Origin: an uncultured Anaerolineales bacterium
GTDB taxonomy: Bacteria; Planctomycetota; Phycisphaerae; FEN-1346
Assembly: GCA_964461715.1 (NCBI GenBank)
Contig: CAYWVR010000001.1
Location: 14,400 to 78,399, forward strand
Length of the DNA: 64,000 nucleotides
Direction of reading: 5' to 3'
Positions 1,555 through 48,897 of this stretch are shown piece by piece; position 1 is the stretch's first letter, and the number at the start of each line of letters is the position of its first letter. Made by a program: the position numbers and the translations under genes. Below the pieces are notes generated by a model. The model was not told the origin of the DNA and did no database searches. It saw nothing but the letters and a program-made list of their open reading frames with translations.

Positions 1555-1560
1555 AGACCC

Positions 1561-6080: not shown

Positions 6081-6095
6081 CCCAAGGAGCTTCCC

Positions 6096-8699: not shown

Positions 8700-8756
8700 G
8701 GGCGGTAATTGTACGGCGTTGCCGGGCCCTCAGCAAGCGACTACAATCCTTTGCCC

Positions 8757-14440: not shown

Positions 14441-14461
14441 CGACGAAGGAGCACCATTAGC

Positions 14462-17944: not shown

Positions 17945-19737
17945 CACGAGACGGTCCCCGCATCGACAAGGCCCTCCTCCACCGCTACCGGGCGGGCTTC
18001 TGGACCTGGATTTGCTACCACTGGCCCATGGTCCTCGTGCACCTCGCCCTCCTGACCCTCGGCCTCGTCAACCTCTACCCCTTCATCTGGATGCTCGGCA
18101 CGAGCTTCAAGTCCGAGCAAGAGGCTTCCATCGAGAAGCTCCGGCCCGTGCCCGGGCCCAAGTACAAGCTGGCCGAAGGGTTTGACCTGGAGACGGTCGT
18201 GCCCGCCGCCCTGGAGCCCGACCTTGCGGCCGCCGAGGGCGAGGCTCGCCTCGATGCCCTCAACCTCGTCCGCCGCAAGCTCGAGGTGCTTCACGACCTC
18301 CAGCGACGGGCCTGGGCCGAGCGCGTCGAGCACGAGGTCAGCTTGGTCGTCGGTCCCCTGGACGATGAGATCGTCCGCCTCAAGGCCGAGGCGGACCGTC
18401 TGGCCCGGGTGTGGGACGCCAAGCGCGAGGCCGCCCGGCGAGGCGAGGTGCCCTGGCCCGAGGTCGACGCATTCGAGGCCCGGCTCGACGCCGCCCGACG
18501 CGCCTACGAGACGGCTCGCGACGCCGCCACCGGGGCCGCCGTGCGCGGGCTTCTGGAGCGCGGCGTGCTTGTGGAGGACCCGGTCCATGACAGCCTCTGG
18601 TTCTCCGAGGCGGGTTTCGCCCGGACCTGGCCCAAGGCCCTGACCCCGCGCCAGAGGGCCGCGTCCGAGGCCCTCTGGGACCATTTCACCCTCGGCCCCA
18701 TCCGCTACGCGAACACCGTGGCGGTTGAGCTCGAGACCGCCCGCCGCCAGATGGCCGAGTGGGCCACCATCGCGGGCGGCATCCTGGTTCCCGTCGGCGA
18801 AGCGGTCGAGGGCGAGACGGTTTATCGCCTGGCGGAGGGGGGGCGCGGCCGGATCTACCGCGACCTCTATCCCCGCCAGATTCTCGCCCTCTGGCTTATG
18901 CACGCCGAGAACACCCGCCGTGCCGAGAGCCGCAACACCTTTGCCACCGACCGCTGGAGCCCGGAGGATTACGGCAAGTATTTCGGTCTGGCCGACGTCG
19001 AGCAGGCCCGGGCGGAGCTCCGGGAGGCCGTCGAGGCCGGGTACCTGGCCGACGGGACGGCCCAGCCGATTAACTACTGGGTCGTGCTGAAGGAGGAGAA
19101 CTTCCTGCTCCACTTCCTGACGAGCCTCCTCATCACGAGCGTCGTTGTGGTGGCCTCGATCCTGCTCTCCTCCATGCTCGGATACGCCCTGGCTCGCGGC
19201 TCGTTCCCCGGCAAGATGCTCGTGCTGGGCGTCCTGATTGCGGCCTCCATCCTTCCGACCGAGGCCCGCATCATCCCCATCTTCAAGATGCTCCTGGCCG
19301 TGGGGGCCCTGGAGAACCTGTGGGGCATGGTGGCCTGGCTCTCGAGCGCCGGCGTGGGCCAGACGCTCCTGATGGCGGGCTTCTTCCTGACGCTTCCGAA
19401 GGAGGTGGACGAGGCGGCCGAGGTGGACGGGGCGGGCATCTTCCGGAAGTTCTTCGACATCGCTCTGCCCATGGCCCGGCCCATCGTCATGACCGTGGGC
19501 CTCTTCGCGTTCCTCGGGGCATGGAACAACTTCCTCGTGCCGCTCCTGTGCACCATCTCCCGCCCCAGTATGCAGCCGCTGGCCGTCGCCGTGTACAGCT
19601 TCCAGCAGGGCCACCCCGGCAAATGGCACCAGATCAACGCCGCCGCCGCCGTCATGATCATCCCCGTCATCGTCATGTTCCTGTTCGTGCAAAAGCATGT
19701 CGTCAAGGCCATCGCCGTCGGGGCGGTCAAGGGATAA
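17941..19737 (+). CDS. ABC sugar permease (MalG/UgpE-like) with a ~300-aa periplasmic insertion between TM1 and TM2
   Basis: ATGA overlap with the upstream gene. TM1 YPFIWMLGTSFK, EAA loop (EAAEVDGAGIFRKFFDIALPMARP) and C-terminal TMs. Confidence 0.75.
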   Translation: MTRDGPRIDKALLHRYRAGFWTWICYHWPMVLVHLALLTLGLVNLYPFIWMLGTSFKSEQEASIEKLRPVPGPKYKLAEGFDLETVVPAALEPDLAAAEGEARLDALNLVRRKLEVLHDLQRRAWAERVEHEVSLVVGPLDDEIVRLKAEADRLARVWDAKREAARRGEVPWPEVDAFEARLDAARRAYETARDAATGAAVRGLLERGVLVEDPVHDSLWFSEAGFARTWPKALTPRQRAASEALWDHFTLGPIRYANTVAVELETARRQMAEWATIAGGILVPVGEAVEGETVYRLAEGGRGRIYRDLYPRQILALWLMHAENTRRAESRNTFATDRWSPEDYGKYFGLADVEQARAELREAVEAGYLADGTAQPINYWVVLKEENFLLHFLTSLLITSVVVVASILLSSMLGYALARGSFPGKMLVLGVLIAASILPTEARIIPIFKMLLAVGALENLWGMVAWLSSAGVGQTLLMAGFFLTLPKEVDEAAEVDGAGIFRKFFDIALPMARPIVMTVGLFAFLGAWNNFLVPLLCTISRPSMQPLAVAVYSFQQGHPGKWHQINAAAAVMIIPVIVMFLFVQKHVVKAIAVGAVKG

Positions 19738-19995
19738 GGACGTCCGGCCGTCGAGGGGAAGGGGTGATGAGGCATGCGCCGGCGCCGCATCGCCGCCGCC
19801 ACGGATGACGGGGTTGGCGTCCGGGGCGGCGCGACGGGCGAGCCGGTGGCGGCCCTACCCGCGGGACGCGGCGTCAAGCGGCTGGTCTTCTCGCCGGACG
19901 GCCGCACCTTCACCAGTGCGAGCGACGACACGACGCGGCTGGCGTGGGAGAAGCCGAAGGACCTGGCCGAACATTCGCAACCGGCCGAGGGACGC

Positions 19996-21033
19996 TTACC
20001 GGAGCACGAAGTACCCGTGCCCGACCACATCGAAGACCTTCTCCTCGAGGATCGCGAGGCCCGCCGCGCGGAAGAGGGCGCGCCACTCGGCGGCGGTGCC
20101 GATCGTCTGGTTCGTGAGGTCGTGGTAGAGGTGGTGCTCGAGGAAGGCGGTGGGGCTCTTGCGGAGCTTTTCGTGGGGCTGCTTGCAGAACTCGCCGATG
20201 TAGAGCAGGGCCCGTGGGAACTGCGTCCGGAGCGACCTCAGGAGACCCACGATCCGATCCGGGCCCTCGTCCAAGTACTCGTGGTACGTATCGACGGCGG
20301 TGACGGAATCGACGTCCGCGTGCTTTTCTGCGACGGCCGCCAAGTCGAACATGTCGCCGTCGCGGACCTCGATCCGCTCGCTGAAACGGCTTTCGGCCAA
20401 GACCTCACGGGCGTAGCGGACCGTGGGCGGGTCGTTGTCGACGCCCACGGCCCGGATCGCCGGGTCCGTCTCGGCCAGGTAGAACAGGAACGCCAGGTCC
20501 CCGCAGCCGAGGTCCAGGACCTTGCGGGCCCCGTGCCGGTGCAGCATGTCCGCGAGGACGGGGTAGGGCAGCGTGCGGCAGAGTTGGCCGCTGCCGCGCC
20601 CGACGTACTTGCCGATCCTCTGGACGTCGTCGGGATAGGCGGCCTCGCCCCTGAGGAGGTCGGGCAGGGCGTCGAAAACGGGGGCGTAGGCGTAGGTCAG
20701 CTCGAAGAAGCCCCGGGGCTCGCCCATCAGGCGTCTCAGCTTCGGCAGGGCCCGGACCCCGCCGCCCTCGACGCGCACCAGGCTCAGGCCGTCGAGGTAG
20801 TCGAGGACGCTCTCGAGGACGCGGCGGTCGAGCTTGCCCTTGCCTGCCAGGTCCTCCAGGGCGACCGATTCGGTCTCCAGGAGCCGGTCCAGGACGCCCG
20901 TCTCCAGCAGGGCCCAGAGACACCCGCAGGTGGCGTAGCCGCGGACGTAGGGCAGGGCCTCGTCGAATCGCCGCTTCAAGCGGATGCTGCGGCGAAAGCC
21001 CAGCAGCTTCATCACTTCGAGGGCTTGGCTCAT
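19996..21033 (-). CDS. Class I SAM-dependent O-methyltransferase-like protein (with N-terminal dimerisation/wHTH domain)
   Basis: VLDLGCGDLAFLFYLAE motif I and an acidic motif (VDND). Start MSQALEV overlaps the upstream stop by ATGA. Confidence 0.75.
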   Translation of the reverse strand: MSQALEVMKLLGFRRSIRLKRRFDEALPYVRGYATCGCLWALLETGVLDRLLETESVALEDLAGKGKLDRRVLESVLDYLDGLSLVRVEGGGVRALPKLRRLMGEPRGFFELTYAYAPVFDALPDLLRGEAAYPDDVQRIGKYVGRGSGQLCRTLPYPVLADMLHRHGARKVLDLGCGDLAFLFYLAETDPAIRAVGVDNDPPTVRYAREVLAESRFSERIEVRDGDMFDLAAVAEKHADVDSVTAVDTYHEYLDEGPDRIVGLLRSLRTQFPRALLYIGEFCKQPHEKLRKSPTAFLEHHLYHDLTNQTIGTAAEWRALFRAAGLAILEEKVFDVVGHGYFVLR

Positions 21034-21791
21034 GGCGTCGGCTCCTCGGCGGGGGCGGCCTCGATGACGAGGGCGTCGTAGCGGGCCCGGACCCGCTCTC
21101 CGGGCGACAGGACGAGGAACCGCTCCGGGTCCCATCGTCCGTCCAGGCCCTCCTGCACCAGCCCCAGGTCCCCTTGGACGTCCATGAACTCCCATCCGCG
21201 CTCGGCGCAGATCTCGCGGACCCGCTGCTTCAGCTCTGGCGGCCGGTGGAAGGGGAACTCGATCAAGGCCCCGTGCGTGTAATGCTCCTCCCACCCGCCC
21301 ATGACCTCCGCGAGGTACCGGGCGTTCTCCTCGCCGTACTTCGCGACCCGCTCGTCCCACTTGGCCCGCCTGTACTCGGGACCCAAGCCGCTCTTGGCCA
21401 TCGGCTCAACCTGTTCGGCCCGGTCGCGGCATTCGAGCCACCCGCTCGAGTACCAGTACGTGCCCGGGTGCCGCTCGAAAAGCTCTGCGTACCGTTCCTT
21501 GGAGCCCAGAAGGAGCGTGATGCAGTCGTGGGCTCGCGGGACGACCAAGGGCACGCGACCCGCCCGGATGCCGTCCATGGCGTTGTTGCAGAGGCCGTAG
21601 CCTAGGACGAGGGCGTCGTAGCGGTCCGGGTCGGTGTCGTCGACGAGGGGCTGGAGTCGGTCGCGGCAGAGGTCGCTGTTGTCGTGGAGGCCCTGGGGCA
21701 GCAGGACGACGTCGACGACGGCCTCGGCCCGGGCGGCGCAGCGGTACATTTCGCGCCGAAGCACGTCGCAGGCCACCACCCGGAGTCGCAT
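21030..21791 (-). CDS. DUF1638 domain protein
   Basis: ...ALVLGYGLCNNAM...PRAHDCITLLLGSKERY..., resembling the DUF1638 signature. TGATG overlap with the GH3 stop. Confidence 0.55.
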   Translation of the reverse strand: MRLRVVACDVLRREMYRCAARAEAVVDVVLLPQGLHDNSDLCRDRLQPLVDDTDPDRYDALVLGYGLCNNAMDGIRAGRVPLVVPRAHDCITLLLGSKERYAELFERHPGTYWYSSGWLECRDRAEQVEPMAKSGLGPEYRRAKWDERVAKYGEENARYLAEVMGGWEEHYTHGALIEFPFHRPPELKQRVREICAERGWEFMDVQGDLGLVQEGLDGRWDPERFLVLSPGERVRARYDALVIEAAPAEEPTP

Positions 21792-23515
21792 CACGCGTCC
21801 TTCCGTTCGCGGGCGACCCTGTAACACGCGCTGCCGGGGAACCGGCGCTCGAATTCCACGTCGCCGACGAGGAACTTGTGCTTGTACTGCTCGACACGTC
21901 CGCCCGTCCGGTCGATGGCCTCCGTGTCGTAGGCGTGCCACGTGCCCGGCGGGAGCGTCCGGACGCGGATGGGGTCGAGGCGTCCGCTGGCCCGTTTGGC
22001 GGCGTACTCGATGTTCAGGTCCACGAGGGCCCGCTCCACGGCTTCGGCCAGGGCCGGCCCGCGTTCGGGCGCCACGGCGGCCTCCTCAACGAGGAGGTCG
22101 TAACAGGGCGCCTCGTCCCAGACGGGGCAGAGGCAATAGCTCTCGACCGGCAGGCCCAGGGCCGCCACGGCCCCGTTGACGGCGGTCACGACCTGGTGCT
22201 CGGTCAGCTTCTCGCCCGTCAGGCTGGAAACGTGCCCCCCTTTGTTCAGGAACCGGATGACGGGGACGGGACCGGACCGGCCGGTCACCTCGACCAGATC
22301 GCCGATATCGTAGCGGAAGAGTCCGGAGGGGGTCGTCAAGACCAGGAAGTACCGTTCGCCCACCTGCGTCTCGTGCGGCAGGAGCGTCGGAGCGTCGGGC
22401 CGGCCCGCCTCCTCCTCGGGCAGGAACTCGAACACGGTGCCCCGGACGTCCAGCACGCCGGCCGATCCGTTCGTCTGGAGGGGCACGGAGAAGCGGCCCT
22501 CGCTGGCCAGCAGGCCGATGTCGCGGACCGGGACGTCGCCCCACACCTCGGGCATCCGCCGCAGGTAGAGCTCCAGCGTCCCGCCCTTCCAGGTTCCGAT
22601 CAGCGGCACGTCCCAGGTGTCCTTCGGGTAGAGGTGGCCGGTGGCCCGGACGATGCGTTCCAGGGCCCGGGCGCGGTCGGGCATGGCCTTCAGGGCCCGC
22701 TCGATGCGGGCCCGGTGCTCCCGGTCGAGGGCGAGGTCGGTCCGCAAGGTCCCGTCTGAAAGGTCGCGCAGCAGGTCGTCCTTTGCCTCGTCCATCGTCC
22801 GCGCGAGGCCCAGCAGCGTGCTCGGATTGGCCGTCAGCGGCATCAGTCGCCGCACCTGGAGGCCCAGGCGGCACGCGAGATAGTACTTCGTGGCCGTGGT
22901 GCCGCTATAGGCGCTCTCGGGGGGCATGATGTAGAGCCAGCGGATGCTGCGTCGCTGGGCCTGGGCCGTCAGGCCGCTCATGGCCCCGGCGGGTACGCCG
23001 GAGGGCGTCGACTCCTCGTCCATGCGGCTGGCGAGTTGGAGGAGCTTGGCGCCGAAGGCGTCGTAGTGGTCGTTGAGTGCATGGACGCCCCAGACGTGCC
23101 ATCCCTCGCGGTAGGCCTTCAGGAGGGCGTCCGTCACGGGGATGTACTTCGGCGTGCCCGTCGTGCCGCTCGTCAGGGCGAACATGTGAACCGGGGTGTC
23201 GGGGCCGAAGAGGGCGGAGAGATCGCCCTCGCGGACGCGTTGGATGTAAGGCTCGGCCCTCTCGTAGCCCGCGATGGGCATGGCTCGGCGCAGGTCGTCA
23301 AGGGTGCGGACGCGGTCGAGGCCGTGATCGCGGGCGAAGTCGCTGCCCTCGACGATCTCGAAGATGCGGCGGAGGACGCGGGACTGGATTTCCGGCCCGC
23401 GCTGGACGGCCCGGTTCCAGCAGGCGACGTGCCGACAGGCCTCCAGGCGCAGGGGCGTCCAGAGGACCCGTCGCATCCGGATGGCCAGCGGGGTACCCAC
23501 GGTCGCTCCCGTCAT
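21791..23515 (-). CDS. GH3-family acyl-acid amido synthetase (adenylate-forming)
   Basis: FALTSGTTGTPKYIPVT phosphate-binding loop typical of GH3/JAR1-like enzymes. ~570 aa. The ATG at 23513-23515 overlaps the upstream hydrolase stop (ATGA). Confidence 0.75.
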   Translation of the reverse strand: MTGATVGTPLAIRMRRVLWTPLRLEACRHVACWNRAVQRGPEIQSRVLRRIFEIVEGSDFARDHGLDRVRTLDDLRRAMPIAGYERAEPYIQRVREGDLSALFGPDTPVHMFALTSGTTGTPKYIPVTDALLKAYREGWHVWGVHALNDHYDAFGAKLLQLASRMDEESTPSGVPAGAMSGLTAQAQRRSIRWLYIMPPESAYSGTTATKYYLACRLGLQVRRLMPLTANPSTLLGLARTMDEAKDDLLRDLSDGTLRTDLALDREHRARIERALKAMPDRARALERIVRATGHLYPKDTWDVPLIGTWKGGTLELYLRRMPEVWGDVPVRDIGLLASEGRFSVPLQTNGSAGVLDVRGTVFEFLPEEEAGRPDAPTLLPHETQVGERYFLVLTTPSGLFRYDIGDLVEVTGRSGPVPVIRFLNKGGHVSSLTGEKLTEHQVVTAVNGAVAALGLPVESYCLCPVWDEAPCYDLLVEEAAVAPERGPALAEAVERALVDLNIEYAAKRASGRLDPIRVRTLPPGTWHAYDTEAIDRTGGRVEQYKHKFLVGDVEFERRFPGSACYRVARERKDA

Positions 23516-24558
23516 CCCGCCTTCTGGCGGGGTTCCTCGGCGGCGTCCGGGCCGCACAGATACCGGTCGAAGAACGCCACCAGGTGGGCGGCATAGGTCG
23601 CCCGCTCGGCGACGACGGCCTGGTTATGCTTGGCCCCGGGGCAGATCCAGAGGTCTTTCCCGCCGGGCTTCTGCTCGTAGAGGGCCCGCGTGTGCTCCGG
23701 CCGCACATACGTATCGCGCTCGCCGCTGATAAACAGCATGGGCACATCCCTCAGCCGCGCCAAGGCCTTTTTCATGCTGGGGAAGCGGCAGCGGAGCTTC
23801 AGCTCGACGTAGAGCATGGTCATGGCCCGCATGAAGCGGCAGACGGGCGGGGAGGCGAGGTTGACGCGGGCGAAGATCTGGCCCCACCGCGTGATGAGCT
23901 GCTCGATCGTGTAATCGGTCGAGAAGACCCCGTCAAGGGCCAGGCACCGGATCGCGGGCTCCAGTACCGCCGCCACCGCCGCGGCGCTCGCCCCGCGACT
24001 GACGCCCAGGACCCCGAGGCCCCGCCGGCCGAGGTCGCGGCAGCTCTGGACGTAGGCGACGGCGGCCCGCACGTCGTTGACCTCGTGATGGCTGGGCCAG
24101 TGGCGGGGCTCGAAGTGCGGCGGGGTGAAGCTGCGGCCGTGGCCGCGAAAATCGAACGTGAAGACCTCGTAGCCTGCCTCGACGAGCGGCCAGGCGTACC
24201 GTCCCGCGCTGAACATGTCGCTGGCGAACTCGTGGCAGAAGATCACGAGGCCCCGTTCGGGCGCCCCCTTCGGACGCTCGACGAACATGCCCCGCAGGCT
24301 CCGCCCGTCCAGGCTCGGGAACGCGACCACTTCGCCCGTGGGAGGCTCGTAATCCTGGAGGTTGGCCGTGACGGGCAGCGGCGTGTCGAGGAAGATGTTC
24401 ACGCAAAGACGCAGATACCGGGCCAGAATGACCATCAGGACCAGCGCCGCCAGGCTGAGGACGGCAATGATCACCAGAGCGGGCCAGTGGTCGGCGAGGG
24501 ATGCGGGCGCGGATTCCGCGAGAAACCCGGTGCTCGGCCCTATCCATGCCGCTCTCAC
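23512..24558 (-). CDS. Alpha/beta-fold hydrolase with N-terminal TM anchor (possible thioesterase/lipase)
   Basis: N-terminal hydrophobic helix. HGRSF and GVSRG (GxSxG) nucleophile elbow. Confidence 0.65.
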   Translation of the reverse strand: MRAAWIGPSTGFLAESAPASLADHWPALVIIAVLSLAALVLMVILARYLRLCVNIFLDTPLPVTANLQDYEPPTGEVVAFPSLDGRSLRGMFVERPKGAPERGLVIFCHEFASDMFSAGRYAWPLVEAGYEVFTFDFRGHGRSFTPPHFEPRHWPSHHEVNDVRAAVAYVQSCRDLGRRGLGVLGVSRGASAAAVAAVLEPAIRCLALDGVFSTDYTIEQLITRWGQIFARVNLASPPVCRFMRAMTMLYVELKLRCRFPSMKKALARLRDVPMLFISGERDTYVRPEHTRALYEQKPGGKDLWICPGAKHNQAVVAERATYAAHLVAFFDRYLCGPDAAEEPRQKAG

Positions 24559-24639
24559 GGGTCGGCCTCCTGCGAAGTACCCGGATACCTCCGTAGCCGG
24601 GCGAGCGGGTGCAGAGAACGGCCGCGCCGGCGCCCCGGA

Positions 24640-25932
24640 TCAGGACTCCGCGTACTTCCTCACGATGAGGGAATCGTTCTGGCCGCCGAAGCCGAACGAG
24701 TTGGACATGGCGACCTCGACCTCGGCCTGGCGGGCGGCGTTCGGCACGTAGTCCAGGTCGCACTCCGGGTCCGGGTTCTCCAGGTTCATGGTCGGCGGCA
24801 GAATCCCGTCGCGGATGGCCATGACGCAGGTCATCAGCTCGGTGGCCCCGGCGGCGGCGATGAGGTGCCCCAGCATGCTCTTGACACTCGAGACGGGCAC
24901 CTTCGTGGCCGCATCGCCGAAAACGACCTTGATGGCCCGGGTCTCGACCTTGTCGTTCTCGGTCGTTCCGGTGCCGTGGGCGCTGATGTAGTCGATCTGG
25001 CCGGGGGCCACGCCCGCGTTGTCGAGGGCCATCTGCATGGCGGCGGCCGGGCCGCGACCCTCCGGATGGATGTCGGTCATGCGGTAGGCGTCGCTGCTGG
25101 TTCCGAAACCGATCAACTCGCCGTGGATGCGGGCCCCGCGGTCCCGGGCGGCCTCCAGCTCCTCCAGGACCATGATCGTCGAGCCCTCGCCGAGGACGAA
25201 CCCGGCCCGTTCTCGGTCGAAGGGGCGGCTGGCCCGCCAGGGCTCGTCCTTCGGCTCCGTGGAGATGGCCGTCAGCAGGTTGAAGCCCGTCACTCCGAGG
25301 GGGTGGATCATCGAGTGCGTGCCCCCCGCGAGCATCCGGTCCGTCCGCCCGGTGCGGACCAGCTCCAGGGCCTCGCCGATGGCCTGGGTGCTGGCTGCAC
25401 AAGCCGTCAGACACGAGAAGACGGGCCCGCCGAGGCCGTACTCGCTCGCCAGGTGATTGGCGGGCATATTCGGCTCCTGCTCCAGCTCCCGCATGGCCTG
25501 GAACGTCTCCTCGCCCTTTCGGGCGAAGCGGGCGATGTCGAGGTCGCCGTCGGCGCCGAGGGCGTAGAGTGTGGAGACGGCCAGGCTCTCGAAGTCGATG
25601 GCCCCTTCGCCGCTCCCGAGGTAGATGCCGAACCGGTCCCGGTCCACGGCAGCCAGGTCCAGCCCCGAATCGTCCAGGGCCATCCGCCCGGCGGCGGCGG
25701 CGAAGCGGACGTTGCGCCCCCCGGCCGCGTACCGGGACGGGTCGCGAACGTACGCTGCGAGGTCGAATTCGGGCACTTGGGCCGCGAACGTCGTCGGGAA
25801 CGTCGACGCGTCGAAGATCTCGATGGGCCGGATGCCGCTCTTGCCCGCCACCAGGCCCGCCCACGTCTCTTCGTACGTGAAGCCGAGGGGCGTGATCGAG
25901 CCGATGCCCGTGATGACGACGCGTCGCTTCAT
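24640..25932 (-). CDS. Beta-ketoacyl-ACP synthase (FabF/KAS II-like), catalytically complete
   Basis: MKRRVVITGIGSITPLG. Cys in LTACAAST, His in SAHGTGT, Lys/His in VKSMLGHL. Confidence 0.85.
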   Translation of the reverse strand: MKRRVVITGIGSITPLGFTYEETWAGLVAGKSGIRPIEIFDASTFPTTFAAQVPEFDLAAYVRDPSRYAAGGRNVRFAAAAGRMALDDSGLDLAAVDRDRFGIYLGSGEGAIDFESLAVSTLYALGADGDLDIARFARKGEETFQAMRELEQEPNMPANHLASEYGLGGPVFSCLTACAASTQAIGEALELVRTGRTDRMLAGGTHSMIHPLGVTGFNLLTAISTEPKDEPWRASRPFDRERAGFVLGEGSTIMVLEELEAARDRGARIHGELIGFGTSSDAYRMTDIHPEGRGPAAAMQMALDNAGVAPGQIDYISAHGTGTTENDKVETRAIKVVFGDAATKVPVSSVKSMLGHLIAAAGATELMTCVMAIRDGILPPTMNLENPDPECDLDYVPNAARQAEVEVAMSNSFGFGGQNDSLIVRKYAES

Positions 25933-25969
25933 GGTCCCTCGCGCGGCGGGACGGGCCCGCACGCCTCTC

Positions 25970-27298
25970 CTATCGGTTCAGGCGGACGACGGTGGCGGCG
26001 GTCTGGCCGCCGACGCCCCCGCTCGTGATGAGGGCTAGGTCGGACTCCATCGCCGCAGGTTCGCCCCGAACGAGCCTCAGGGCCACGTCGGGGGCGGGAT
26101 CGTCACAGTTCAGGACAGGCGGGACCTGGCGGGTCCGGGCCAACTTGCACAGGACCGCCAGGTCCGCGGCCCCGCTGGCGGCGCCCATGTCGCCCGTGAC
26201 GCCTTTGGTGGCGGTCACCGGCACGCGGGAGGCGGCCGACCCGAGGGCGGCCTCCAGGCCCGCGGCCTCGCTCGTATCCTGCGGCGGATAGGCCGATCCG
26301 TGGGCCACGACGGCCCCCAGGTTCCCCGGATCGACACCGGCGGCGTCCAAGGCGGCCTCGACCGCGAGGCGCGTGGCCCGTCCGTCGGGGTCGCACGCGT
26401 TGACGCCCGCGACCGTAACGGAGGCCCCGCAACCGAGGATTTCGCCGTAGACGCGGGCCTCGCGGGCCTCGGCTCCCTCCGCCGACTCCAGCATCAGGAT
26501 CGCCGCCCCTTCGGCCGCCACGAAGCCCGTCCGGGCGGCGTCAAAGGGTCGGGAGGCGGCCGCGGGGTCGCCCTCGGTGGTGGCCAGGCGGCCCAGCATC
26601 TGCATCCGCAGCATCAGGACGGGGTTGACGCGGCTCTCCGCGCCCCCCGCGAGCATCCGGTCGGCCGCCCCGCGCGTGAGGATCCGCGTCGCCTCGTCCA
26701 GGGCCAGCAGCCCCCCCGCGTCCCCGCACGTCAGCGAATTCGAGGGCCCCCGGGCGTCCCAGAGCACGCCCGTGTGGCAGGTGTGCATGTTCGGGAGGTA
26801 CTTGAGGAGCCACAGCGGGAACATCTGCGGGATGCCCCGCTCGCCCCAGCCCGTCATATCGAACTCGCCGTCCTCGGCGGCAGCCCGGACCGGACGGGCG
26901 ATGTCCTCGATCTCGGTGGGGATGAAGTTCGTGCCGAAGACGAGGCCGAACCGTGCGGGGTCGATGTCCGGAAGAACGGGCTCCTTGGCCTTGAAATCGC
27001 CGATTCTGAGGCCGGAATCGAGGATTGCCAGGTTTGAGGCGGCCACGGCCATTTGGATGTCGACGGCCATGACCTTGGCGTTCTTCTTGATGTAGCGGCT
27101 CTGGTCCTTGCGGACGCCGGCGGCGGGGTCGAACTCCAGGACCTCCCCGGTCACGTGGCTCGAAAAGGCGGACGGATCGAAGCGCCGGAGGGTCCGGACG
27201 GCACTGCGGCCGTCGCGAACGGCCTCGGCGAGGGCCCCGGCCCCGACGCCGGGGGGGCTGACCACCCCCAGCCCGGTGATCACGACACGACGTTCCAC
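25970..27298 (-). CDS. KS-like partner / chain-length-factor-like beta-ketoacyl synthase paralogue (second catalytic His replaced)
   Basis: MERRVVITGLGVVSPPG thiolase fold. First His retained (VAHGSAY). The GHL motif reads GDMGAASG (His to Asp). Confidence 0.7.
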   Translation of the reverse strand: MERRVVITGLGVVSPPGVGAGALAEAVRDGRSAVRTLRRFDPSAFSSHVTGEVLEFDPAAGVRKDQSRYIKKNAKVMAVDIQMAVAASNLAILDSGLRIGDFKAKEPVLPDIDPARFGLVFGTNFIPTEIEDIARPVRAAAEDGEFDMTGWGERGIPQMFPLWLLKYLPNMHTCHTGVLWDARGPSNSLTCGDAGGLLALDEATRILTRGAADRMLAGGAESRVNPVLMLRMQMLGRLATTEGDPAAASRPFDAARTGFVAAEGAAILMLESAEGAEAREARVYGEILGCGASVTVAGVNACDPDGRATRLAVEAALDAAGVDPGNLGAVVAHGSAYPPQDTSEAAGLEAALGSAASRVPVTATKGVTGDMGAASGAADLAVLCKLARTRQVPPVLNCDDPAPDVALRLVRGEPAAMESDLALITSGGVGGQTAATVVRLNR

Positions 27299-27314
27299 GG
27301 TCCGGGTCGACTCC

Positions 27315-27815
27315 TCAGCCGGCGGTCTCGTCCGACGCGCCGAGCTTCTTCAGGTCGCGCATGCGGAGCATGCGGACGAAATCCTCGTTGAAGACGAAAT
27401 TCTCGCCGCCGGCCTCCACGGGGGCCCGCGACTGGTCGAGGTGGGCGAACATCAACTCCACCTCCCCCACCACCTCCTCGCCGCGCGTAATGCGGCCCTC
27501 GATGGAGGCCCCCTCCGGCCGCACCTCGCCCCGCACCGTCGCCTCGAAGCGGATCTGGTCGCCGGGGAGGACGAGACGGTGGAACGTGGCGCGCGTGACC
27601 TTCGCCAGGACCACCTTTTCCCGGAAATCGAAGGCCTCGCCCACCAGCACGCCGCCCGTCTGGGCCATGCCCTCGATCATCAGCGTGGGCGGATGGACGG
27701 GAAAGCCCGGGAAATGGTCGTGGAGATGCTCCTCGGCGAGCGTGACGTTCTTGACCGCGACGGCCCGCCGCCCGCTCTCGAACTCGAGGAACTTGTCGAT
27801 CCAAATCCAACGCAT
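27315..27815 (-). CDS. FabZ-like 3-hydroxyacyl-ACP dehydratase (hotdog fold)
   Basis: HFPGFPVHPPTLMIEGMAQ active-site His/Glu motif. Confidence 0.8.
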   Translation of the reverse strand: MRWIWIDKFLEFESGRRAVAVKNVTLAEEHLHDHFPGFPVHPPTLMIEGMAQTGGVLVGEAFDFREKVVLAKVTRATFHRLVLPGDQIRFEATVRGEVRPEGASIEGRITRGEEVVGEVELMFAHLDQSRAPVEAGGENFVFNEDFVRMLRMRDLKKLGASDETAG

Positions 27816-27893
27816 GGGGCGCTCCGCCGCTTTCGCTGCCGCGCGGCACGCGCCGCCGGCGGCTCGGGAGTCCGGCCGTCGGGCCGACGGGCC

Positions 27894-28292
27894 TCAGGCG
27901 CTTTCGCCCTCGAGCTTCGCCTCGATGTACTTGACGATCATGTCCACGGTGAAGAGGTCGGACATGTCCTGGACGGTCGGGTTCTTCTCGAACTCCTCGA
28001 GGTCGGCGTACGGCATCCGCTCCCGCAGCTCCGCCAGGCCCTTCTCGGTGAATTTCCCGTCCTGGACGAACTCATCGCTGTTCAGGACGTTGTCGGGGAA
28101 CAGGTCGCCGCGGGGCACCTTGATGTTGAAGGTCTTCTCGAGGCGGAAGACGATGTCGAGGAAGTCGATGCTTTCGGCCCCCAGGTCGGCCTGGATGCGG
28201 GCTTCCGGAGTCACCTCGTCCTCATCGACGCCCAAGGCGTCCACGAGGGCTTCCTGGATCTTCTCGAAGATCTCGTCGCGGCTCAAAGCCAT
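27894..28292 (-). CDS. Acyl carrier protein, elongated (132 aa)
   Basis: DLGAESIDFLDIV phosphopantetheine-attachment motif. ~50-aa acidic C-terminal extension. Confidence 0.7.
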   Translation of the reverse strand: MALSRDEIFEKIQEALVDALGVDEDEVTPEARIQADLGAESIDFLDIVFRLEKTFNIKVPRGDLFPDNVLNSDEFVQDGKFTEKGLAELRERMPYADLEEFEKNPTVQDMSDLFTVDMIVKYIEAKLEGESA

Positions 28293-28349
28293 CTCGCTTG
28301 ACCTCCACCTAATGTGTGTCGCGCCCGTCCCCGCCCCAAGATCGTCCGC

Positions 28350-28847
28350 TCAGCGGGCGGCGGACGCCTCCAGAGCCCGGGGACCTCCCATCAGTCGAAA
28401 CCGCTCCCTCAGGTGCTCTCGCAGCCGGTCGTCGATGTCGGTTCGGGCCGGGTCCTCGTCGACCACGTTCCGATGTGTCAGGACGAGCCGGGCCTGAATC
28501 CCCACCGTCCCGTCCCATCGTCCGAGGGCCTTGAATCGGCTCTCGTCGGGGCCGATCTCCCGGGCCTCGCACTCCAGGATCATCTGCCCGCCCGGCCGAA
28601 GAAAGTTGCCGTATCGGACGTTCCGGGCCTCCTTCAGGAGCACCAGCGTCCGACCGTAATCCGTCTCCAGCCGCACCAGCCACGCCGCCGCCTGCACCAG
28701 CGCCTCCAGCATCATGACGCCCGGCAGCACGGGATACGCGGGAAAATGGTCCGCGAGGTACTCCTCGCCCAGGGCCAGGCTCTTGACCGCGACGATCTTC
28801 TTGCCCGGCACGATCTCCTGGATGCGATCAACGAGATAGAATCTCAT
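28350..28847 (-). CDS. Second FabZ/FabA-like hotdog dehydratase
   Basis: ADHFPAYPVLPGVMMLEALVQ motif. Confidence 0.75.
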   Translation of the reverse strand: MRFYLVDRIQEIVPGKKIVAVKSLALGEEYLADHFPAYPVLPGVMMLEALVQAAAWLVRLETDYGRTLVLLKEARNVRYGNFLRPGGQMILECEAREIGPDESRFKALGRWDGTVGIQARLVLTHRNVVDEDPARTDIDDRLREHLRERFRLMGGPRALEASAAR

Positions 28848-28910
28848 GGCATCCCCGGCGGCCGTATTCTATCGCGGCCCGGCCTCGGCGTGCAAAGCTT
28901 TTCGCCCGCA

Positions 28911-28943
28911 AGCCCCGCACGGGGCCCTTTCCCCCCGGGAAAG
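28911..28943 (-). terminator. Pair of GC-rich hairpins between the aminotransferase and the dehydratase (possible weak terminator/attenuator)
   Basis: GCCCC-GCAC-GGGGC and CTTTCCC-CCC-GGGAAAG stems. No strong U-tract. Confidence 0.25.
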
Positions 28944-29001
28944 TCGAGAAACTTAGCAGAACCCTCACGGACACGCAAGGCAAAAAGCGCTTCCGCCGCC
29001 T

Positions 29002-30090
29002 TCAGGCCATCTGTTCCGCCACCTTCGAGAGCACCTCCAGCCCCCGCTCGATTGCCGCGGGCTCGGCGACGTACGAGATGCGGAAGTGCGTGTCCCGCTC
29101 GCTGAAGACGTTCCCCGGGATCACCAGGACCCCCGACTCGATGGCCCGGGCGCAGAAGGCCGTCCCGCTGCCGCCGGGGGCCTCCGGGAAGATGTAGAAC
29201 GCCCCGCCCGGCCGCACCACCTCGAATCGCTTCGAGAGGCCCTCGTAGACGAGGTCCCGCCGCGCGCGGAACGACTGGGCCAGGTCCGTCGTATCGGTCT
29301 CCAGGGCCGCCACGGCCCCCCATTGGAGCGGCGACGGGGCGCAGACGAACGTGTACTGCTGGAGCGTGGTCATCGCCCCGATCACCTCGGCCGGCCCGGC
29401 CGCGTACCCCATCCGCCAGCCCGTCATGGCGTGGGTCTTGGAGAACCCGCGAAGCAGGATGACGCGGTCGTAGAGGGGCCAGGGCGTGGGGCTGGGGCCG
29501 TCGTAGCTGAACAGGTTGTAAATCTCGTCCGAAAGAACCACGAGCCCGTGCCGCCGGGCCACCTCCACCGCCCCCGCCACCTCCTGCTCGGTATAGACCG
29601 CTCCGGTGGGGTTCGTGGGGCTGTTCAGGACCAGCATCCGCGTCCGTTCCGTCACGGCCGCCTCCAGCCGGTCGGCCCGCAGACGGAAATCCGGGTACGT
29701 GTCGACGAAGACGGGCGTCGCCCCGATCAGGTTCACGAGGTGCTTGTACATGACGAAGTACGGGTCGGGAATGAGCACCTCGTCGCCGGGGTTGACCGTG
29801 GCCAGCAGGGCCAGAAGAATTCCGCCGGAAACGCCGCTGGTGATCAGCAATGGGGCCTCGAAGGTCCCGAATTCCTCCGCCAGGCGCCCCCGCACCGCCT
29901 CCCGCAGGGCCGCCTCGCCCTGGGTCACGGTGTACCGGTTCGAGCCACGGCGGATGGCCTCGATGGCGGCTTCCTTGCACGCTTCGGGCACGTCGAAATC
30001 CGGCTGGCCGATCGAAAAGTTGATCGGGTTATCGAGCTTGGCCGCCAGCTCGAACACCTTCCGGATGCCGGAGGCGTCCACGAGGTCCAT
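29002..30090 (-). CDS. Pyridoxal-phosphate-dependent aminotransferase, class I/II (AspC-like). Start approximate
   Basis: IGQPDFDVP, NRYT, SKTHAMTGWRMGY (PLP-lysine) and C-terminal fold. Confidence 0.8.
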   Translation of the reverse strand: MDLVDASGIRKVFELAAKLDNPINFSIGQPDFDVPEACKEAAIEAIRRGSNRYTVTQGEAALREAVRGRLAEEFGTFEAPLLITSGVSGGILLALLATVNPGDEVLIPDPYFVMYKHLVNLIGATPVFVDTYPDFRLRADRLEAAVTERTRMLVLNSPTNPTGAVYTEQEVAGAVEVARRHGLVVLSDEIYNLFSYDGPSPTPWPLYDRVILLRGFSKTHAMTGWRMGYAAGPAEVIGAMTTLQQYTFVCAPSPLQWGAVAALETDTTDLAQSFRARRDLVYEGLSKRFEVVRPGGAFYIFPEAPGGSGTAFCARAIESGVLVIPGNVFSERDTHFRISYVAEPAAIERGLEVLSKVAEQMA

Positions 30091-30245
30091 GCGGCAAGCC
30101 AGGCGGGACGATTCGGCCACGGACAGGCTCCTTTCGGCTCTGGAAGGGCCTCTTCGTCGGAAACAGCCCCGCCCCGCGGCCCGCTTCCATCGGCGGACAG
30201 GGGGCGGACGAATCGGTCTCGGGCGACGCACGGCGGCGACCGGGC

Positions 30246-30503
30246 TCAGCTCTCCTCGGTTTCCGGCACGGTCTCGCCTTCGGCGGCTTCGAGGGCGGCG
30301 GCGGCTTCGGCGGCCTTTTCGGCGGCGGCGGCCTTCTTGCGGGTCTGGACCTTGCGATGGGCCACTTTCGGCAGGCCGAAGACGTCGCCCTCCTCGTCCC
30401 AGCGATCCTCCTCCTGGAGGACCTCGACCCGTTCGGCCCGCGTCAGCACGTTCCGGTGCCGCTCCAGCTCGCCCTTACTCCGAAGACTCTTATCCATCGA
30501 CAT
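30246..30503 (-). CDS. Small conserved basic/acidic protein (85 aa), function unknown
   Basis: MSMDKSLRSKGELERHRNVLTRAERVE... followed by a Lys/Ala/Glu-rich tail. Clean ORF with consistent codon usage. Confidence 0.45.
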   Translation of the reverse strand: MSMDKSLRSKGELERHRNVLTRAERVEVLQEEDRWDEEGDVFGLPKVAHRKVQTRKKAAAAEKAAEAAAALEAAEGETVPETEES

Positions 30504-30548: not shown

Positions 30549-31322
30549 CTATTCAACCAGCACCGTGTACGCGTCCGCGGACGTGTACCAGCCGGTCTCG
30601 CGGCCGAATTCCCGGAGCAGCTCGTTCATCGTCCGTGCGTAATCGTTCGTCTCGGCCTCGGTGGCGAATCGACGTTTCGTATACAAGATGTAGTACCCGC
30701 CCCGCGAGACGATCTCCAAATCTATGCCCCGCTGCTGGAGGAACGCCAGCAAACGGTTCGTGTACTCCTCCTTCGCGACCGATAGACGCATTAACCGGAC
30801 GCGATACCGCTCGGCGGGCGTCTCAGGCGGCATCTCCTCGGCCCCGTCGGGCGTCTCGGCGACGGCTTCTTCCTCGCCCGCAGTAGCGTTTTCGGATGCG
30901 TCAGGGCCGATTTCGCGCTCTTCGCCCGCTCCCGGTATCTCGGCCAGGCCCGGCGTCACGGCCCCCTTTCGGACCGCCTCGAAGGCCGGCTCGCGGGGCG
31001 GGGAGGGCAGCTTCTCGCCCGTTTCGCCGCCTCCGCCGCTCAGCCGGGCCCCGAGGAAGTAGAAGATCGCACACAGGCACAGCACGGCGACGATCACCAC
31101 CGCCAGCCAGTAGTACGAAATCCACACCCCGCCGTACGCAATCGGCGTCTGGAGCGGCACGCCGGCACGGGCCGGTTTTTCGTCCCCCCGGGCCGCCGAA
31201 GGTTTCTGAGGCCGCCGTACGACCGGTTCCGGCCGGGCCGGCGCCTCCCCCTTTTCGTCCCGCTCCTCGCGTTCCCGGGCAAGGAGCTCAAAGAGGGCCC
31301 GGTGCTGCGGTTTCTTGGCCAT
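30549..31322 (-). CDS. Membrane-anchored protein with C-terminal SPOR-like domain (possible septal peptidoglycan binder)
   Basis: Basic N-terminus, single TM (WISYYWLAVVIVAVLCLCAIFYF), Glu/Pro-rich linker. C-terminal ~80 aa with a SPOR-like pattern (YRVRLMRL...YYILY). Confidence 0.4.
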   Translation of the reverse strand: MAKKPQHRALFELLAREREERDEKGEAPARPEPVVRRPQKPSAARGDEKPARAGVPLQTPIAYGGVWISYYWLAVVIVAVLCLCAIFYFLGARLSGGGGETGEKLPSPPREPAFEAVRKGAVTPGLAEIPGAGEEREIGPDASENATAGEEEAVAETPDGAEEMPPETPAERYRVRLMRLSVAKEEYTNRLLAFLQQRGIDLEIVSRGGYYILYTKRRFATEAETNDYARTMNELLREFGRETGWYTSADAYTVLVE

Positions 31323-32077
31323 CGCGTCCTCTCCGGGCGCACCATCATCGCCGGGCAGTGCGCAGAGTATAGATGCCTCGGCCGCCGGCCGTCAAGGGGC
31401 AAGGGAACACAATCGGGCATCTATACGCGTAGGGCACCGGAGCCGTGACGGTCTCGGATGGGGCGCGCCCTCCCGCGGGTGTTAACCTGGGAAAGATGGG
31501 TAAGCTTCCCGCCCCTTTTGGCGGGATTCGTGAAACGTTTTACCCCTAAGCGACACACTTTTCGCGACTTTTTGGGGGGTAGTCGGGGGGTTCTCGAACG
31601 TTTTGCCCCCTTTCTTGCGCGAACTTGCCCCCCTTTTGACCCCCTTTCGTCCGCATCTTCTAGATCTTCGTCGGCCGATCTGCCGCATAGAGCGAAACCG
31701 CCTGCGCAAAAACGAACGCCCTGCCCGAAATCCCCGGCGTCCGCGCCCGCCGTCGCCCGGTGCTCGGCGGCCCCCCCGTGCATCCGGGGCTTAGGATATC
31801 TGGAATCTATATTGTACACAAGCCCCGGCCGGGGCGATGGTCGGGACGGTCGGCGAGAGCGTCGCGCCGCCGCTGCGGGGACCGAAAAAAGGATAGATAT
31901 AAAGGACGGGCCGTATCTCGATCCTGCCCGGAGCTTGCGCGCCCGGCCCGCTTGCGGGCCGGCGAAACGGGCGCGGGGGTGCGCGGGGGCCCGTTGTCCC
32001 TTCGGCCCTTCCGTCTTTGACGTTGCCCCTGCCGCGCTCGCGCGGTTCAATAGGCGGCGGGGACGGAGGGAACGCGG
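31323..32077. other. ~750-bp non-coding region with lower-GC islands and direct repeats
   Basis: No credible ORF. Motifs GAAACGTTTTACCCC / GAACGTTTTGCCCCCTTT / CCCCCCTTTTGACCCCCTTT repeated. Contains TATATTGTACA and GATAGATATAAAGGA AT-islands. Confidence 0.5.
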
Positions 32078-33367: not shown

Positions 33368-33381
33368 CGAAGGAACACGCC

Positions 33382-37463: not shown

Positions 37464-37670
37464 GGCTGAGTGGCTCCCGCCGCCGTCGGCACGCGGAGTA
37501 TAGAAGCGGCCGGCGGTGCGTGTCAAGGCAAACGGACCCTCCCCACGACGCGAAAACATTTCCATTCGCCCCCGAATTCGCTATCGTGACCCCCCGTGGA
37601 TTCCGCGCGAATAGGGCCCCGGCGGGCGGCGTAGGCTATGGGTGTGGGACGGAACAAGGTCCAGCGGCCC

Positions 37671-38973: not shown

Positions 38974-39020
38974 CGCGAAGGGGCGGCACTCGAACCGAAT
39001 CGATCGTCAGGAGTCAACCC

Positions 39021-48683: not shown

Positions 48684-48897
48684 GGCCGACCTCCTTTTCT
48701 CGAACGCTCGACGCGTGGATTATAGACCCGAAGCGGGGGCGCGACGCAAGGTCAAAAGGCCGGACGGCCGTCGCCGCGCCGCCCGGCCCGCCGGGTGTCG
48801 GCTTTTTGCCGCGCGCTTGCGTCGGCGCGGCCGCCGACGGTAGGATGGGGTCAAGCTGGAGGAGAAGGGGGGGACCCCGAACGAACGGAGACCTGCG

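Follow-up and report, generated by a model that had tools for sequence, protein, structure and literature searches.

What would a planctomycete make with a fatty acid synthase type II (FAS-II)-like gene set joined in one operon to a GH3-family acyl-acid amido synthetase? The question is raised by a locus on the minus strand of a 64,000-nucleotide stretch of DNA (the window; contig CAYWVR010000001.1, positions 14,400 to 78,399) from an uncultured bacterium placed in the Phycisphaerae, which an initial annotation had picked out as a candidate undescribed lipid or polyene operon. Gene calls were made from third-position GC (GC3) phasing together with open reading frame (ORF) listings and translations, the raw ORF lists being noisy because the G+C content of the window is ~70%. 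Ten intact, co-directional minus-strand genes are found within 19996-30120 (GC3 frames and ORFs), and an identical public contig carries the same ten gene models. From the aminotransferase at the 5' end to the methyltransferase (MT) at the 3' end, the intergenic gaps calculated from the coordinates are 154, 57, 78, 16, 37, 81, -4, -1 and -4 bp, and this range (-4 to 154 bp) bears out the tight co-directional packing claimed earlier. In our estimate there is about an even chance (a probability of roughly 0.5) that the operon encodes a dedicated lipid pathway, in which an acyl chain would be released and then amidated to an amino acid by the GH3 enzyme, giving an N-acyl amino-acid lipid; in the lipid of the window operon, the amino acid would probably be methylated.

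The gene families are well defined. Every domain call of the initial annotation was matched by Pfam hidden Markov models (HMMs), including those for GH3 and DUF1638: PF00155 for the aminotransferase, PF07977 for each of the two hotdog dehydratases, PF00550 for the acyl carrier protein (ACP), PF00109/PF02801 for each of the two ketosynthase (KS)-type proteins, Hydrolase_4 for the alpha/beta hydrolase (ABH), the N, M and C domains of GH3, PF07796 for DUF1638 and Methyltransf_31 for the MT. The two motifs quoted in that annotation, FALTSGTTGTPKYIPVT and VLDLGCG, are both present in the translations. The description of a biosynthetic operon in which a FAS-II-like KS and a KS-like partner, two hotdog proteins and an ACP are joined to a GH3 enzyme is thus upheld.

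The GH3 enzyme (21791-23515, minus strand, 574 aa) is a planctomycete-wide paralogue of OlsH. Its N, M and C domains score 183.7, 59.1 and 66.1 bits against a Pfam cut-off of 23.6 (E 6e-54; PF03321/PF23571/PF23572), and the nearest solved structure is JAR1, whose nucleotide-binding motifs SSGTSQGRPK, YGSSE and GLYRYRLGD correspond to TSGTTGTPK, LASEG and GLFRYDIGD here; the key residues of these motifs (TSGTTxxxK, ASEG, GLxRYxxxD) are invariant in 84 family sequences. In Singulisphaera acidiphila, the GH3 enzyme OlsH forms N-acyl ornithine from free fatty acid and ATP, with no requirement for ACP or CoA (2025, PMC12493201). ATP-dependent adenylation of an acid followed by its amidation with an amino acid is therefore the best-supported function by analogy, given the motifs, the kinship with JAR1 and the OlsH precedent, and the amino-acid conjugation proposed at the outset is retained as the most plausible role. 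Comparison with OlsH and its partner OlsI was made through the NCBIfam models. The OlsH model (NF052613) is the sole NCBIfam match of the window GH3, at 108.9 bits against a cut-off of 620, and ten other members of the clade, one of them from a Singulisphaera genome, score 88-144 bits.

Immediately upstream, a membrane-anchored ABH (23512-24558, minus strand, 348 aa) matches Hydrolase_4 and Abhydrolase_1. Its Ser187 (in a GxSxG motif), Asp282 and His311 are invariant in 63 orthologues, and an N-terminal hydrophobic segment (Kyte-Doolittle (KD) score 3.23) is present in 66 of 66. Neither the window ABH nor that of Kolteria matched the OlsI model (NF052614, cut-off 385 bits) at E <= 0.1, another hydrolase giving 23 bits. 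Since both proteins fail the HMM cut-offs, the GH3 and ABH are classed, on model scores, as paralogues or analogues of OlsH and OlsI and not as members of those families. The two genes form the tightest pair of the locus, with a 4-bp overlap here and adjacency in 58 of 70 loci, sometimes without KS genes. Overlaps of 4, 1 and 4 bp at the ABH/GH3, GH3/DUF1638 and DUF1638/MT junctions (the MT start at 21033 overlapping the DUF1638 stop in a revised gene model) indicate translational coupling of the four genes.

The core of the operon is conserved across the phylum. Database searching with the GH3 protein gives 1331 relatives at E <= 1e-10; those with a named source belong to Phycisphaerae, Planctomycetes and Gemmataceae. 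A genome scan restricted to one genome per species returned at least 581 GH3 matches; the best 80 of these were examined and are planctomycete wherever the record title is credible, the carriers being Phycisphaerae, Gemmataceae, Isosphaeraceae (Singulisphaera, Paludisphaera), Kolteria novifilia, Thermoguttaceae and Laterigemmans. Synteny was tabulated by tblastn over loci of ~21 kb, of which 54 non-redundant ones with at least 7 kb upstream of GH3 were informative. In 41 of the 54, the full set of six core genes, namely the two hotdogs (HD1 and HD2), ACP, KSb, KSa and ABH, is found upstream of GH3, an arrangement far beyond chance, in the core order hotdog-(FabG)-ACP-hotdog-KSb-KSa-hydrolase-GH3; in a few loci, ABH-GH3 occurs without KS genes. 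A short-chain dehydrogenase/reductase (SDR) stands between HD1 and ACP in Gemmatales, Kolteria and others (the Kolteria protein exceeding the FabG equivalog cut-off, 310.7 vs 297.75 bits), and is absent from the Phycisphaerae-like clade and Isosphaeraceae. The aminotransferase, DUF1638 and MT genes are confined to one clade, in which GH3 shares at least 52% identity with the window protein; this clade is monophyletic in a neighbour-joining tree that otherwise tracks taxonomy. The GH3-DUF1638-MT trio emphasised in the initial annotation hence gives way to a different conserved unit, ABH-GH3 with the KS/ACP/hotdog core, the DUF1638, MT and aminotransferase genes belonging to one clade only.

In one lineage, a type I polyketide synthase (PKS) ending in a thioesterase (TE) stands in for the type II core. 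In Candidatus Laterigemmans baculatus JC640 (locus L071, 2075-11602), a GH3 orthologue (43% identical) begins 1 nt after the gene for a 2606-aa, fully reducing type I PKS with the domain order KS-AT-DH-ER-KR-ACP-TE (AT, acyltransferase; DH, dehydratase; ER, enoyl reductase; KR, ketoreductase). A Thermoguttaceae metagenome-assembled genome (MAG; locus L076, 1-11671) carries, in this order, genes for a PKS (...ER-KR-ACP-TE), HMGL-like and AsnB-like proteins, an ABH homologue, an MMPL exporter and GH3, the HMGL-like and AsnB-like accessories being amino- or keto-acid enzymes as well. Because these orthologues sit behind thioesterase-terminated PKSs, GH3 is expected to act on released acids, and its proposed service as a substitute for the AMP-ligase of aryl-polyene (APE) clusters, loading the synthase, is disfavoured. 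The upstream PKS and the behaviour of OlsH together constitute the strongest support, by analogy, for placing GH3 after release. A polyene product, also suggested initially, is not established, as related clusters hold a FabG-type KR and one lineage has the ER-bearing type I PKS.

The chain-building core has the marks of a private synthase. KSa (24640-25932, minus strand, 430 aa) is FabF-like and keeps the Cys-His-His triad, as judged from alignment to E. coli FabF. It scores just under the cut-off of the fabF equivalog TIGR03150 (474.9 vs 493.75 bits) and above that of the KAS-II subfamily model NF005589 (466.5 vs 387); its nearest solved structures are FabFs (354 bits), with the KSs for actinorhodin (279) and ishigamide (Iga11, 245) behind them. 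The product of KSb (25970-27298, minus strand, 442 aa), encoded 37 bp upstream of KSa, matches PF00109/PF02801 and is FabF-derived by its nearest solved structures, with 257 bits on the FabF equivalog (cut-off 494). The loss of one catalytic His reported for it is confirmed at the second His, where the window protein has Asp and relatives have Asn or Gln; that description was incomplete, since the catalytic Cys is also replaced, by Asp in the window and by Glu or Asp in the three relatives inspected, and a Cys two residues before the catalytic position is not conserved. An active KS thus lies beside a homologue devoid of the catalytic Cys, which is the pattern of a KS and its chain-length factor (KS/CLF), and KSb is classed from its residues as a catalytically dead, chain-length-factor-like partner of KSa. 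The same pattern was noted in R. baltica RB4527 (Glu163/Asn333), with no function given (Rattray et al., 2009, PMC2649909). In locus L001, HD2 is fused to KSb in a 613-aa protein, which hints at a complex.

The remaining core proteins are similarly specialised. The ACP (27894-28292, minus strand, 132 aa) is covered by PF00550 over residues 10-65 only, passes the subfamily model NF002150 (68.3 vs 66 bits) and bears the phosphopantetheine motif DLGAESID, invariant in 46 orthologues; an insertion of ~45 residues before the last helix is kept across the phylum. HD1 (28350-28847, minus strand, 165 aa) is FabZ/FabA-like (PF07977 1.3e-15; FabZ equivalog 81 bits vs cut-off 113), and HD2 (27315-27815, minus strand, 166 aa) is FabZ-like (PF07977 3.9e-14; FabZ 86 bits, under the cut-offs of 113 for NF000582 and 155 for TIGR01750). 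Both window proteins retain the catalytic His and Glu. Among orthologues, the HD1 His is invariant (44 sequences) while its Glu is replaced by Gln in 15 of 44, and HD2 has the His in 46 of 47 and the Glu in 47 of 47; the variation in HD1 against the near-invariance of HD2 suggests an asymmetric dehydratase pair. As claimed earlier, the cluster has no KR, ER or transporter, and the 64-kb window is likewise without KR, ER or lipid exporter; profile searches of the window found no FabG, FabI, FabD, phosphopantetheinyl transferase (PPTase) or lipid exporter, and no fabD, fabH or plsX flanks the cluster. An ER is missing from all type II versions of the cluster, the type I version having an ER domain.

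The nature of the head group is approached through the genes at the two ends of the operon. MT (19996-21033, minus strand, 345 aa) is a two-domain S-adenosylmethionine (SAM)-dependent enzyme, the best NCBIfam match of which is the 2-ketoarginine MT TIGR04543 (113.4 bits vs cut-off 425), followed by ApyS, a keto-acid MT of ribosomally synthesised and post-translationally modified peptide (RiPP) pathways. The nearest solved structures are MppJ (2e-12, ~50 bits), MrsA and 8ftr, which we take to be SgvM. The full-length alignment to MppJ covers residues 38-335 and aligns H251 and H304 with MppJ H243 and H295, which are equated by position with the SgvM metal ligands; both His are present in 16 of 16 family sequences covering those columns. 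The metal-binding His residues of SgvM are H244 and H296, and enzymes of this kind C-methylate the beta carbon of alpha-keto acids (PMC10502145). With 129 proteins at E <= 1e-8, the family is a small one, and every source that names an organism names a planctomycete. The earlier view of an O-methyltransferase acting on the lipid is abandoned: the match to the O-methyltransferase dimerisation domain is only marginal (E 0.0085), the named relatives (MppJ, MrsA, SgvM and ApyS) are all alpha-keto-acid C-methyltransferases with no phospholipid N-methyltransferase among them, and both metal-binding His are kept. On these grounds, MT is assigned to the metal-dependent alpha-keto-acid beta-C-methyltransferase family.

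Such beta-C-methyltransferases pair with an aminotransferase to give beta-methyl amino acids (MppJ, MrsA/MrsB, SgvM/IlvE). The aminotransferase of the operon (29002-30120, minus strand, 372 aa) is a class I (AspC-like) pyridoxal phosphate (PLP) enzyme and, like MT, a clade-specific accessory (PF00155 2e-63); its best NCBIfam match is GntC (282 bits vs 415), followed by generic aspartate aminotransferases and VioD, all under cut-off. It lies upstream of HD1 in 13 of 13 close relatives with sufficient upstream sequence and occurs, together with MT, in the divergent loci L091 and L092, while the Gemmatales, Isosphaerales and Kolteria clusters are without it; the two genes were gained together, at opposite operon ends, in the monophyletic GH3 clade. 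By analogy with the known pairs, the aminotransferase and MT probably make a beta-methyl amino acid, and the idea that the aminotransferase supplies the amine probably holds, with an MT of keto-acid type as its companion.

The part played by the DUF1638 protein (21030-21791, minus strand, 253 aa), the third clade-specific accessory, is less clear. It matches PF07796 strongly (125.8 bits vs cut-off 27, E 2e-36), with four Cys, two His and one Asp invariant, and is missing from L007, L012, L013 and L091, all of which retain MT. In other, metagenomic genomes, homologues with 53-56% identity occur singly next to gyrB, dnaN and dnaA, on the downstream side of cell-wall genes (L089:10001-11086; L090:10001-10810), which suggests a general cellular role and makes the tie to the pathway weaker than was earlier assumed. 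Cofitness is known to link DUF1638 to split methionine synthase and to a RamA-like corrinoid reactivase with a ferredoxin domain, and recurrent pairing with an iron-sulphur (Fe-S) protein is seen both in those corrinoid systems and in relatives of the present operon. In every close relative with downstream sequence, a gene for a DUF362 protein with a 4Fe-4S ferredoxin domain directly follows MT (L001:13594-14685, L007:12637-13905, L019:13637-14797 and others). No such gene is found at 19738-19995 or elsewhere in the 64-kb window, and the operon is thus one gene shorter here. The operon places DUF1638 in a non-corrinoid setting, and, if a role in the pathway is true, the family would gain its first mechanistic context outside corrinoid reactivation.

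Taken together, these features can be arranged into a pathway. KSa and KSb would pair and prime themselves by decarboxylation of malonyl-ACP, after the manner of amxFabF2/amxFabFmut of anammox planctomycetes, and would build the acyl chain on the private, insertion-bearing ACP, with HD1 and HD2 carrying out dehydration. Ketoreduction, and enoyl reduction if any, would be borrowed here from housekeeping FabG and FabI, many relatives having FabG within the cluster. The membrane-anchored ABH, through its Ser/Asp/His residues, may free the chain from the ACP, either hydrolysing it to the free acid, or transferring the acyl group, or both; GH3 would adenylate the free acid with ATP and join it in amide linkage to the alpha-amino group of an amino acid, much as ornithine is used by OlsH. 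Within the Phycisphaerae-like clade, an alpha-keto acid would first be made by the aminotransferase, MT would methylate its C-3 and the aminotransferase would restore the amine, yielding a beta-methyl amino acid by the logic of MppJ, MrsA/MrsB and SgvM, and DUF1638 with the DUF362/ferredoxin protein (the latter in relatives) may form a redox helper pair for MT. Gene content, catalytic residues, conservation and family placement are direct observations; from them we infer the pairing of the two KS proteins, the release step, the acid and the amine, and the degree of saturation of the chain. The stieleriacines, N-acyl tyrosines, were considered as the product and rejected, as they are made by NasY-type synthases.

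Several points weigh against an N-acyl amino-acid lipid made in this way. Functional transfer from OlsH and OlsI is by analogy only, since GH3 (109 vs 620 bits) and ABH (no match) fail the respective cut-offs. ABH may not be the releasing enzyme and is perhaps an acyltransferase, because an ABH homologue coexists with a thioesterase domain in L076. In Legionella, knock-out of a GH3 gene in a FAS/PKS-like cluster left the product unchanged (PMC5640695). Locus L092 (Planctomycetota MAG GCA_040755855, 713-12163) holds the aminotransferase, HD1, a B12-binding radical SAM protein, KR, ACP, HD2, KSb, KSa, ABH, a Methyltransf_20 protein, MT and a DUF362/Fer4 protein; the Methyltransf_20 gene stands where GH3 is expected and there is no GH3, so that the aminotransferase/MT pair is not strictly GH3-dependent. 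Further, L020 has MT with no aminotransferase within 9 kb. Finally, the amino acid, the chain length and the saturation cannot be read from sequence. As a separate observation, the B12 radical SAM gene of L092 recalls the ladderane-candidate cluster of anammox bacteria.

Four other accounts of the locus have to be weighed against the amidated lipid. The aminotransferase, MT and DUF1638 might serve the acyl chain or its starter (for example, a beta-methyl alpha-keto acid decarboxylated to a branched primer), or MT might methylate the finished lipid; the position of the aminotransferase at the operon start, beside the chain-building genes, and the retention of the pair with the KS core in L092, where it needs no amide-forming role, would suit such an account. 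We regard it as unlikely, since neither cluster nor window has an alpha-keto-acid decarboxylase/dehydrogenase or loading enzyme, the marginal dimerisation-domain match speaks against an O-methyltransferase, and the substrate of every named MT relative is an alpha-keto acid, methylated at C-3 and afterwards either transaminated to an amino acid or left as a keto-acid terminus. The core of highly reducing type II PKS and APE systems likewise combines a KS and its dead partner with two hotdogs and a single ACP, so an aryl-polyene-like pathway can be drawn in which GH3 loads a starter acid onto the private ACP (an ApeH-type role), KSa/KSb with KR, two dehydratases and no ER produce a polyene, ABH releases or lipid-anchors it, and MT and the aminotransferase tailor it. 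ApeI-like matches on both hotdogs in precomputed Pfam results, the absence of ER from every type II version and the membership of GH3 in the ANL adenylating superfamily are in keeping with this. The PKSs upstream of GH3 orthologues, however, have their own loading acyltransferase, terminal thioesterase and ER domain; ABH-GH3 pairs occur with no ACP nearby; the acceptor of all characterised GH3s, planctomycete OlsH included, is an amino-acid amine, with no need of ACP or CoA; the MT family works on alpha-keto acids and not on polyene carboxylates; KSa is nearer FabF than type II PKS ketosynthases; and the ApeH ligase, LPLAT acyltransferase, glycosyltransferase and LolA/MMPL export genes are absent from the operon and the 64-kb window. 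The aryl-polyene-like account is accordingly held to be improbable.

The operon could, on the other hand, be an orthologous ornithine-lipid pathway, in which GH3 forms lyso-ornithine lipid, ABH adds the second chain, MT N-methylates the head group and the FAS-like genes supply 3-hydroxy fatty acid. The GH3, alpha/beta hydrolase and SAM methyltransferase classes are indeed those of the Singulisphaera operon, and the OlsH model is the only NCBIfam model that GH3 matches; yet all 11 clade members scored (one from a Singulisphaera genome) fall at 88-144 bits against 620, ABH is without an OlsI match at E <= 0.1, OlsG is akin to phospholipid N-methyltransferases while the present MT is of MppJ/MrsA type, and most clade members have no MT at all, all of which renders orthology very unlikely. 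Least probable is that KS, ACP and hotdogs are ordinary housekeeping FAS-II proteins with ABH, GH3, DUF1638, MT and aminotransferase as unrelated neighbours by chance or gene order. In its favour, KSa falls only narrowly short of the FabF cut-off (474.9 vs 493.75) and clears the KAS-II subfamily model, one ACP subfamily model accepts the ACP, and the Kolteria in-cluster SDR exceeds the FabG equivalog cut-off; housekeeping systems, however, are not marked by a dead KS partner, a second hotdog or a conserved 45-residue ACP insertion. Against it also stand the lack of flanking fabD, fabH or plsX, the stop/start overlaps that bind ABH, GH3, DUF1638 and MT, and the lineage in which a type I PKS replaces the type II core while GH3 stays. 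Moreover, anammox planctomycetes hold canonical FabF genes apart from their FabF/FabFmut pair, and R. baltica has five FabB/F paralogues, one of them KSb-like.

The flanks of the operon supply further candidates for its extent. A small basic protein (30246-30503, minus strand, 85 aa; TIGR04137, 76 bits vs cut-off 50) is encoded upstream of the aminotransferase in all close relatives; it is a syntenic neighbour whose membership of the pathway is uncertain, and L091 and L092 have small unannotated ORFs at its position (112 and 89 aa). In L067 and L085 (Planctomycetales, without ABH), a homologue lies directly upstream of GH3, at ~590 bp. The next gene (30549-31322, minus strand, 257 aa) encodes a membrane protein with no Pfam or NCBIfam match and one strongly hydrophobic segment (KD 2.91); homologues of 30-44% identity occupy the same position in close relatives, and the gene is possibly co-transcribed with the operon. 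The sole sigma-70-like promoter match on the operon strand (31395-31366) lies upstream of this gene and is weak evidence. The match falls in a ~730-bp interval (31323-32053) that has no coding-phase GC3 signal and separates the 257-aa gene from a divergent GH10 gene. No riboswitch or leader was matched by Rfam anywhere in the window, and terminator-like sites in the scan were no commoner than in shuffled sequence. Downstream, a sugar-type ABC permease is convergent with MT; 14441-19737 (plus strand) encodes an unusually long BPD_transp_1 ABC permease (1160 aa) and then a 598-aa permease, both convergent on the operon 3' end.

Elsewhere in the window, 331-6080 (plus strand) holds a cell-wall and division (dcw) cluster with ftsW/rodA-like, murG, murC, murB and ddl genes, that is, peptidoglycan synthesis genes in a planctomycete-type genome, followed after ddl by a 333-aa ORF with no family match (6081-7082). 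A lipid A lauroyl/myristoyl acyltransferase-like gene (LpxL-like; 7776-8729, minus strand; PF03279 5e-43) is an envelope-lipid gene ~11 kb from the operon. At 37635-40919 (plus strand), an extracytoplasmic function (ECF) sigma factor and a zf-HC2 anti-sigma factor precede a 770-aa protein without Pfam match; further large ORFs without Pfam match are found at 46899-48719 (minus strand) and 33193-34185 (plus strand), and the window also carries queA, glycoside hydrolases and MoxR-type genes.

The wider interest of the locus lies in the GH3 family. The first demonstrated function of bacterial GH3 enzymes was that of OlsH in 2025, and further GH3 paralogues are common in genomes; the present locus defines one such clade with a testable context, consisting of a KS/CLF-like module, a membrane hydrolase and, in some lineages, amino-acid tailoring or an exporter. 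Given that several hundred species-level planctomycete genomes contain the core, a generally important lipid of the envelope or membrane is a likelier product than an uncommon secondary metabolite, and the existence of cultured carriers (Kolteria novifilia Pan216 and Paludisphaera soli JC670) makes knock-outs and lipidomics feasible. N-acyl amino acids are, in addition, of interest as biosurfactants. A broader and more tentative proposal, which we think possible though doubtful, is that of a phylum-wide, undescribed class of planctomycetal lipoamino acids, made by a private FabF/dead-FabF synthase and a second GH3 lineage distinct from OlsH, with a beta-methylated head group in the Phycisphaerae-like clade and DUF1638 with DUF362/ferredoxin as a new redox helper for a metal-dependent C-methyltransferase.

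Among known systems, the closest in enzymology is the Ols operon of the same phylum. The statement in the initial annotation that the architecture was unrecognised overlooked this operon of Singulisphaera, where OlsI (an alpha/beta hydrolase) adds a second acyl chain and OlsG (a PmtA-like N-methyltransferase) is encoded between OlsH and OlsI (PMC12493201); it stands insofar as the proteins here are not members of those families. In the papers searched, neither an earlier description of the present cluster nor a characterised counterpart came to light, in keeping with its designation as undescribed. Both systems have GH3 and an alpha/beta hydrolase in one operon, in the window clade also a SAM MT, with the GH3 motifs kept and an N-acyl amino-acid lipid as the expected product class. 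They differ in the GH3 score (109 bits vs 620), in the ABH (348 aa with a membrane anchor, vs an OlsI model length of 272 and no match), in the MT (alpha-keto-acid C-methyltransferase type, OlsG being PmtA-like by description), in gene order (ABH-GH3 vs OlsH-OlsG-OlsI) and in the module of KS/CLF-like, ACP and dehydratase genes, which is missing from the Ols operon. A Singulisphaera genome also carries a member of the window GH3 clade, and the authors of the OlsH study noted that some genomes carry several GH3 paralogues without assigned role (PMC12493201).

For the chain-building module, the nearest likeness is Cluster I of anammox planctomycetes (amxACP, amxFabZ, amxFabFmut, amxFabF2), in which amxFabF2 and the dead amxFabFmut form a KS/CLF-like heterodimer with malonyl-ACP decarboxylase activity and a preference for its own ACP, and the genes for canonical FabFs lie elsewhere in those genomes (Granatino et al., 2026 preprint, 10.64898/2026.05.19.726425). 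An inactive FabF paralogue just upstream of a FabF-like KS, a private atypical ACP and a FabZ-like dehydratase are common to both, and a heterodimer of the anammox type would explain the missing gene for beta-ketoacyl-ACP synthase III (KAS III), because it decarboxylates malonyl-ACP. In amxFabFmut, which has lost the Cys-His-His triad, Val or Thr stands in for the Cys, whereas KSb has Asp or Glu, as in R. baltica RB4527; the window is without the phytoene-desaturase-like and B12 radical SAM genes (L092 having the latter), and the operon here ends in ABH-GH3. The locus would thus represent a second planctomycete setting for a FabF/dead-FabF heterodimer, outside the ladderane producers. With APE and ishigamide (Iga11/Iga12) systems, it shares a KS and CLF-like partner, two hotdogs, a discrete ACP, a KR (in many relatives) and the lack of ER, and ishigamide is itself a polyene acid amide-linked to an amino acid. 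Unlike in those systems, KSa and KSb are both nearer FabF (354 bits) than Iga11 or the actinorhodin KS/CLF (245-279), and the ApeH-type ligase, LPLAT acyltransferase, glycosyltransferase and LolA/MMPL export genes of APE clusters are not represented; to our knowledge, GH3 is not an enzyme class described for amide formation in APE or ishigamide systems.

The head-group genes resemble the cassettes of MppJ (beta-methyl-Phe), MrsA/MrsB (3-methyl-Arg) and SgvM (beta-methyl-Leu) in having a two-domain SAM MT, two metal-binding His and a class I aminotransferase in the cluster, and differ in that MT scores only ~50 bits with MppJ and 113 bits on the MrsA equivalog (cut-off 425), and in the placing of the two genes at opposite ends of a lipid operon instead of in an NRPS (non-ribosomal peptide synthetase) or toxin cluster. 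The legionellol cluster of Legionella pneumophila (lpg2225-2234) likewise has GH3 among KAS III, KR and ACP genes (Johnston et al., 2016, PMC5640695); GH3 thus lies amid discrete FAS/PKS-like genes in both, and the product there has a modified ornithine in amide linkage, but its KSs are of KAS III type and there is no alpha/beta hydrolase partner. By analogy with these systems, the locus would work like the OlsH/OlsI pathway combined with an amxFabF-type synthase and a beta-methyl amino-acid cassette, while its proteins fall outside the OlsH, OlsI, APE and MrsA equivalog families.

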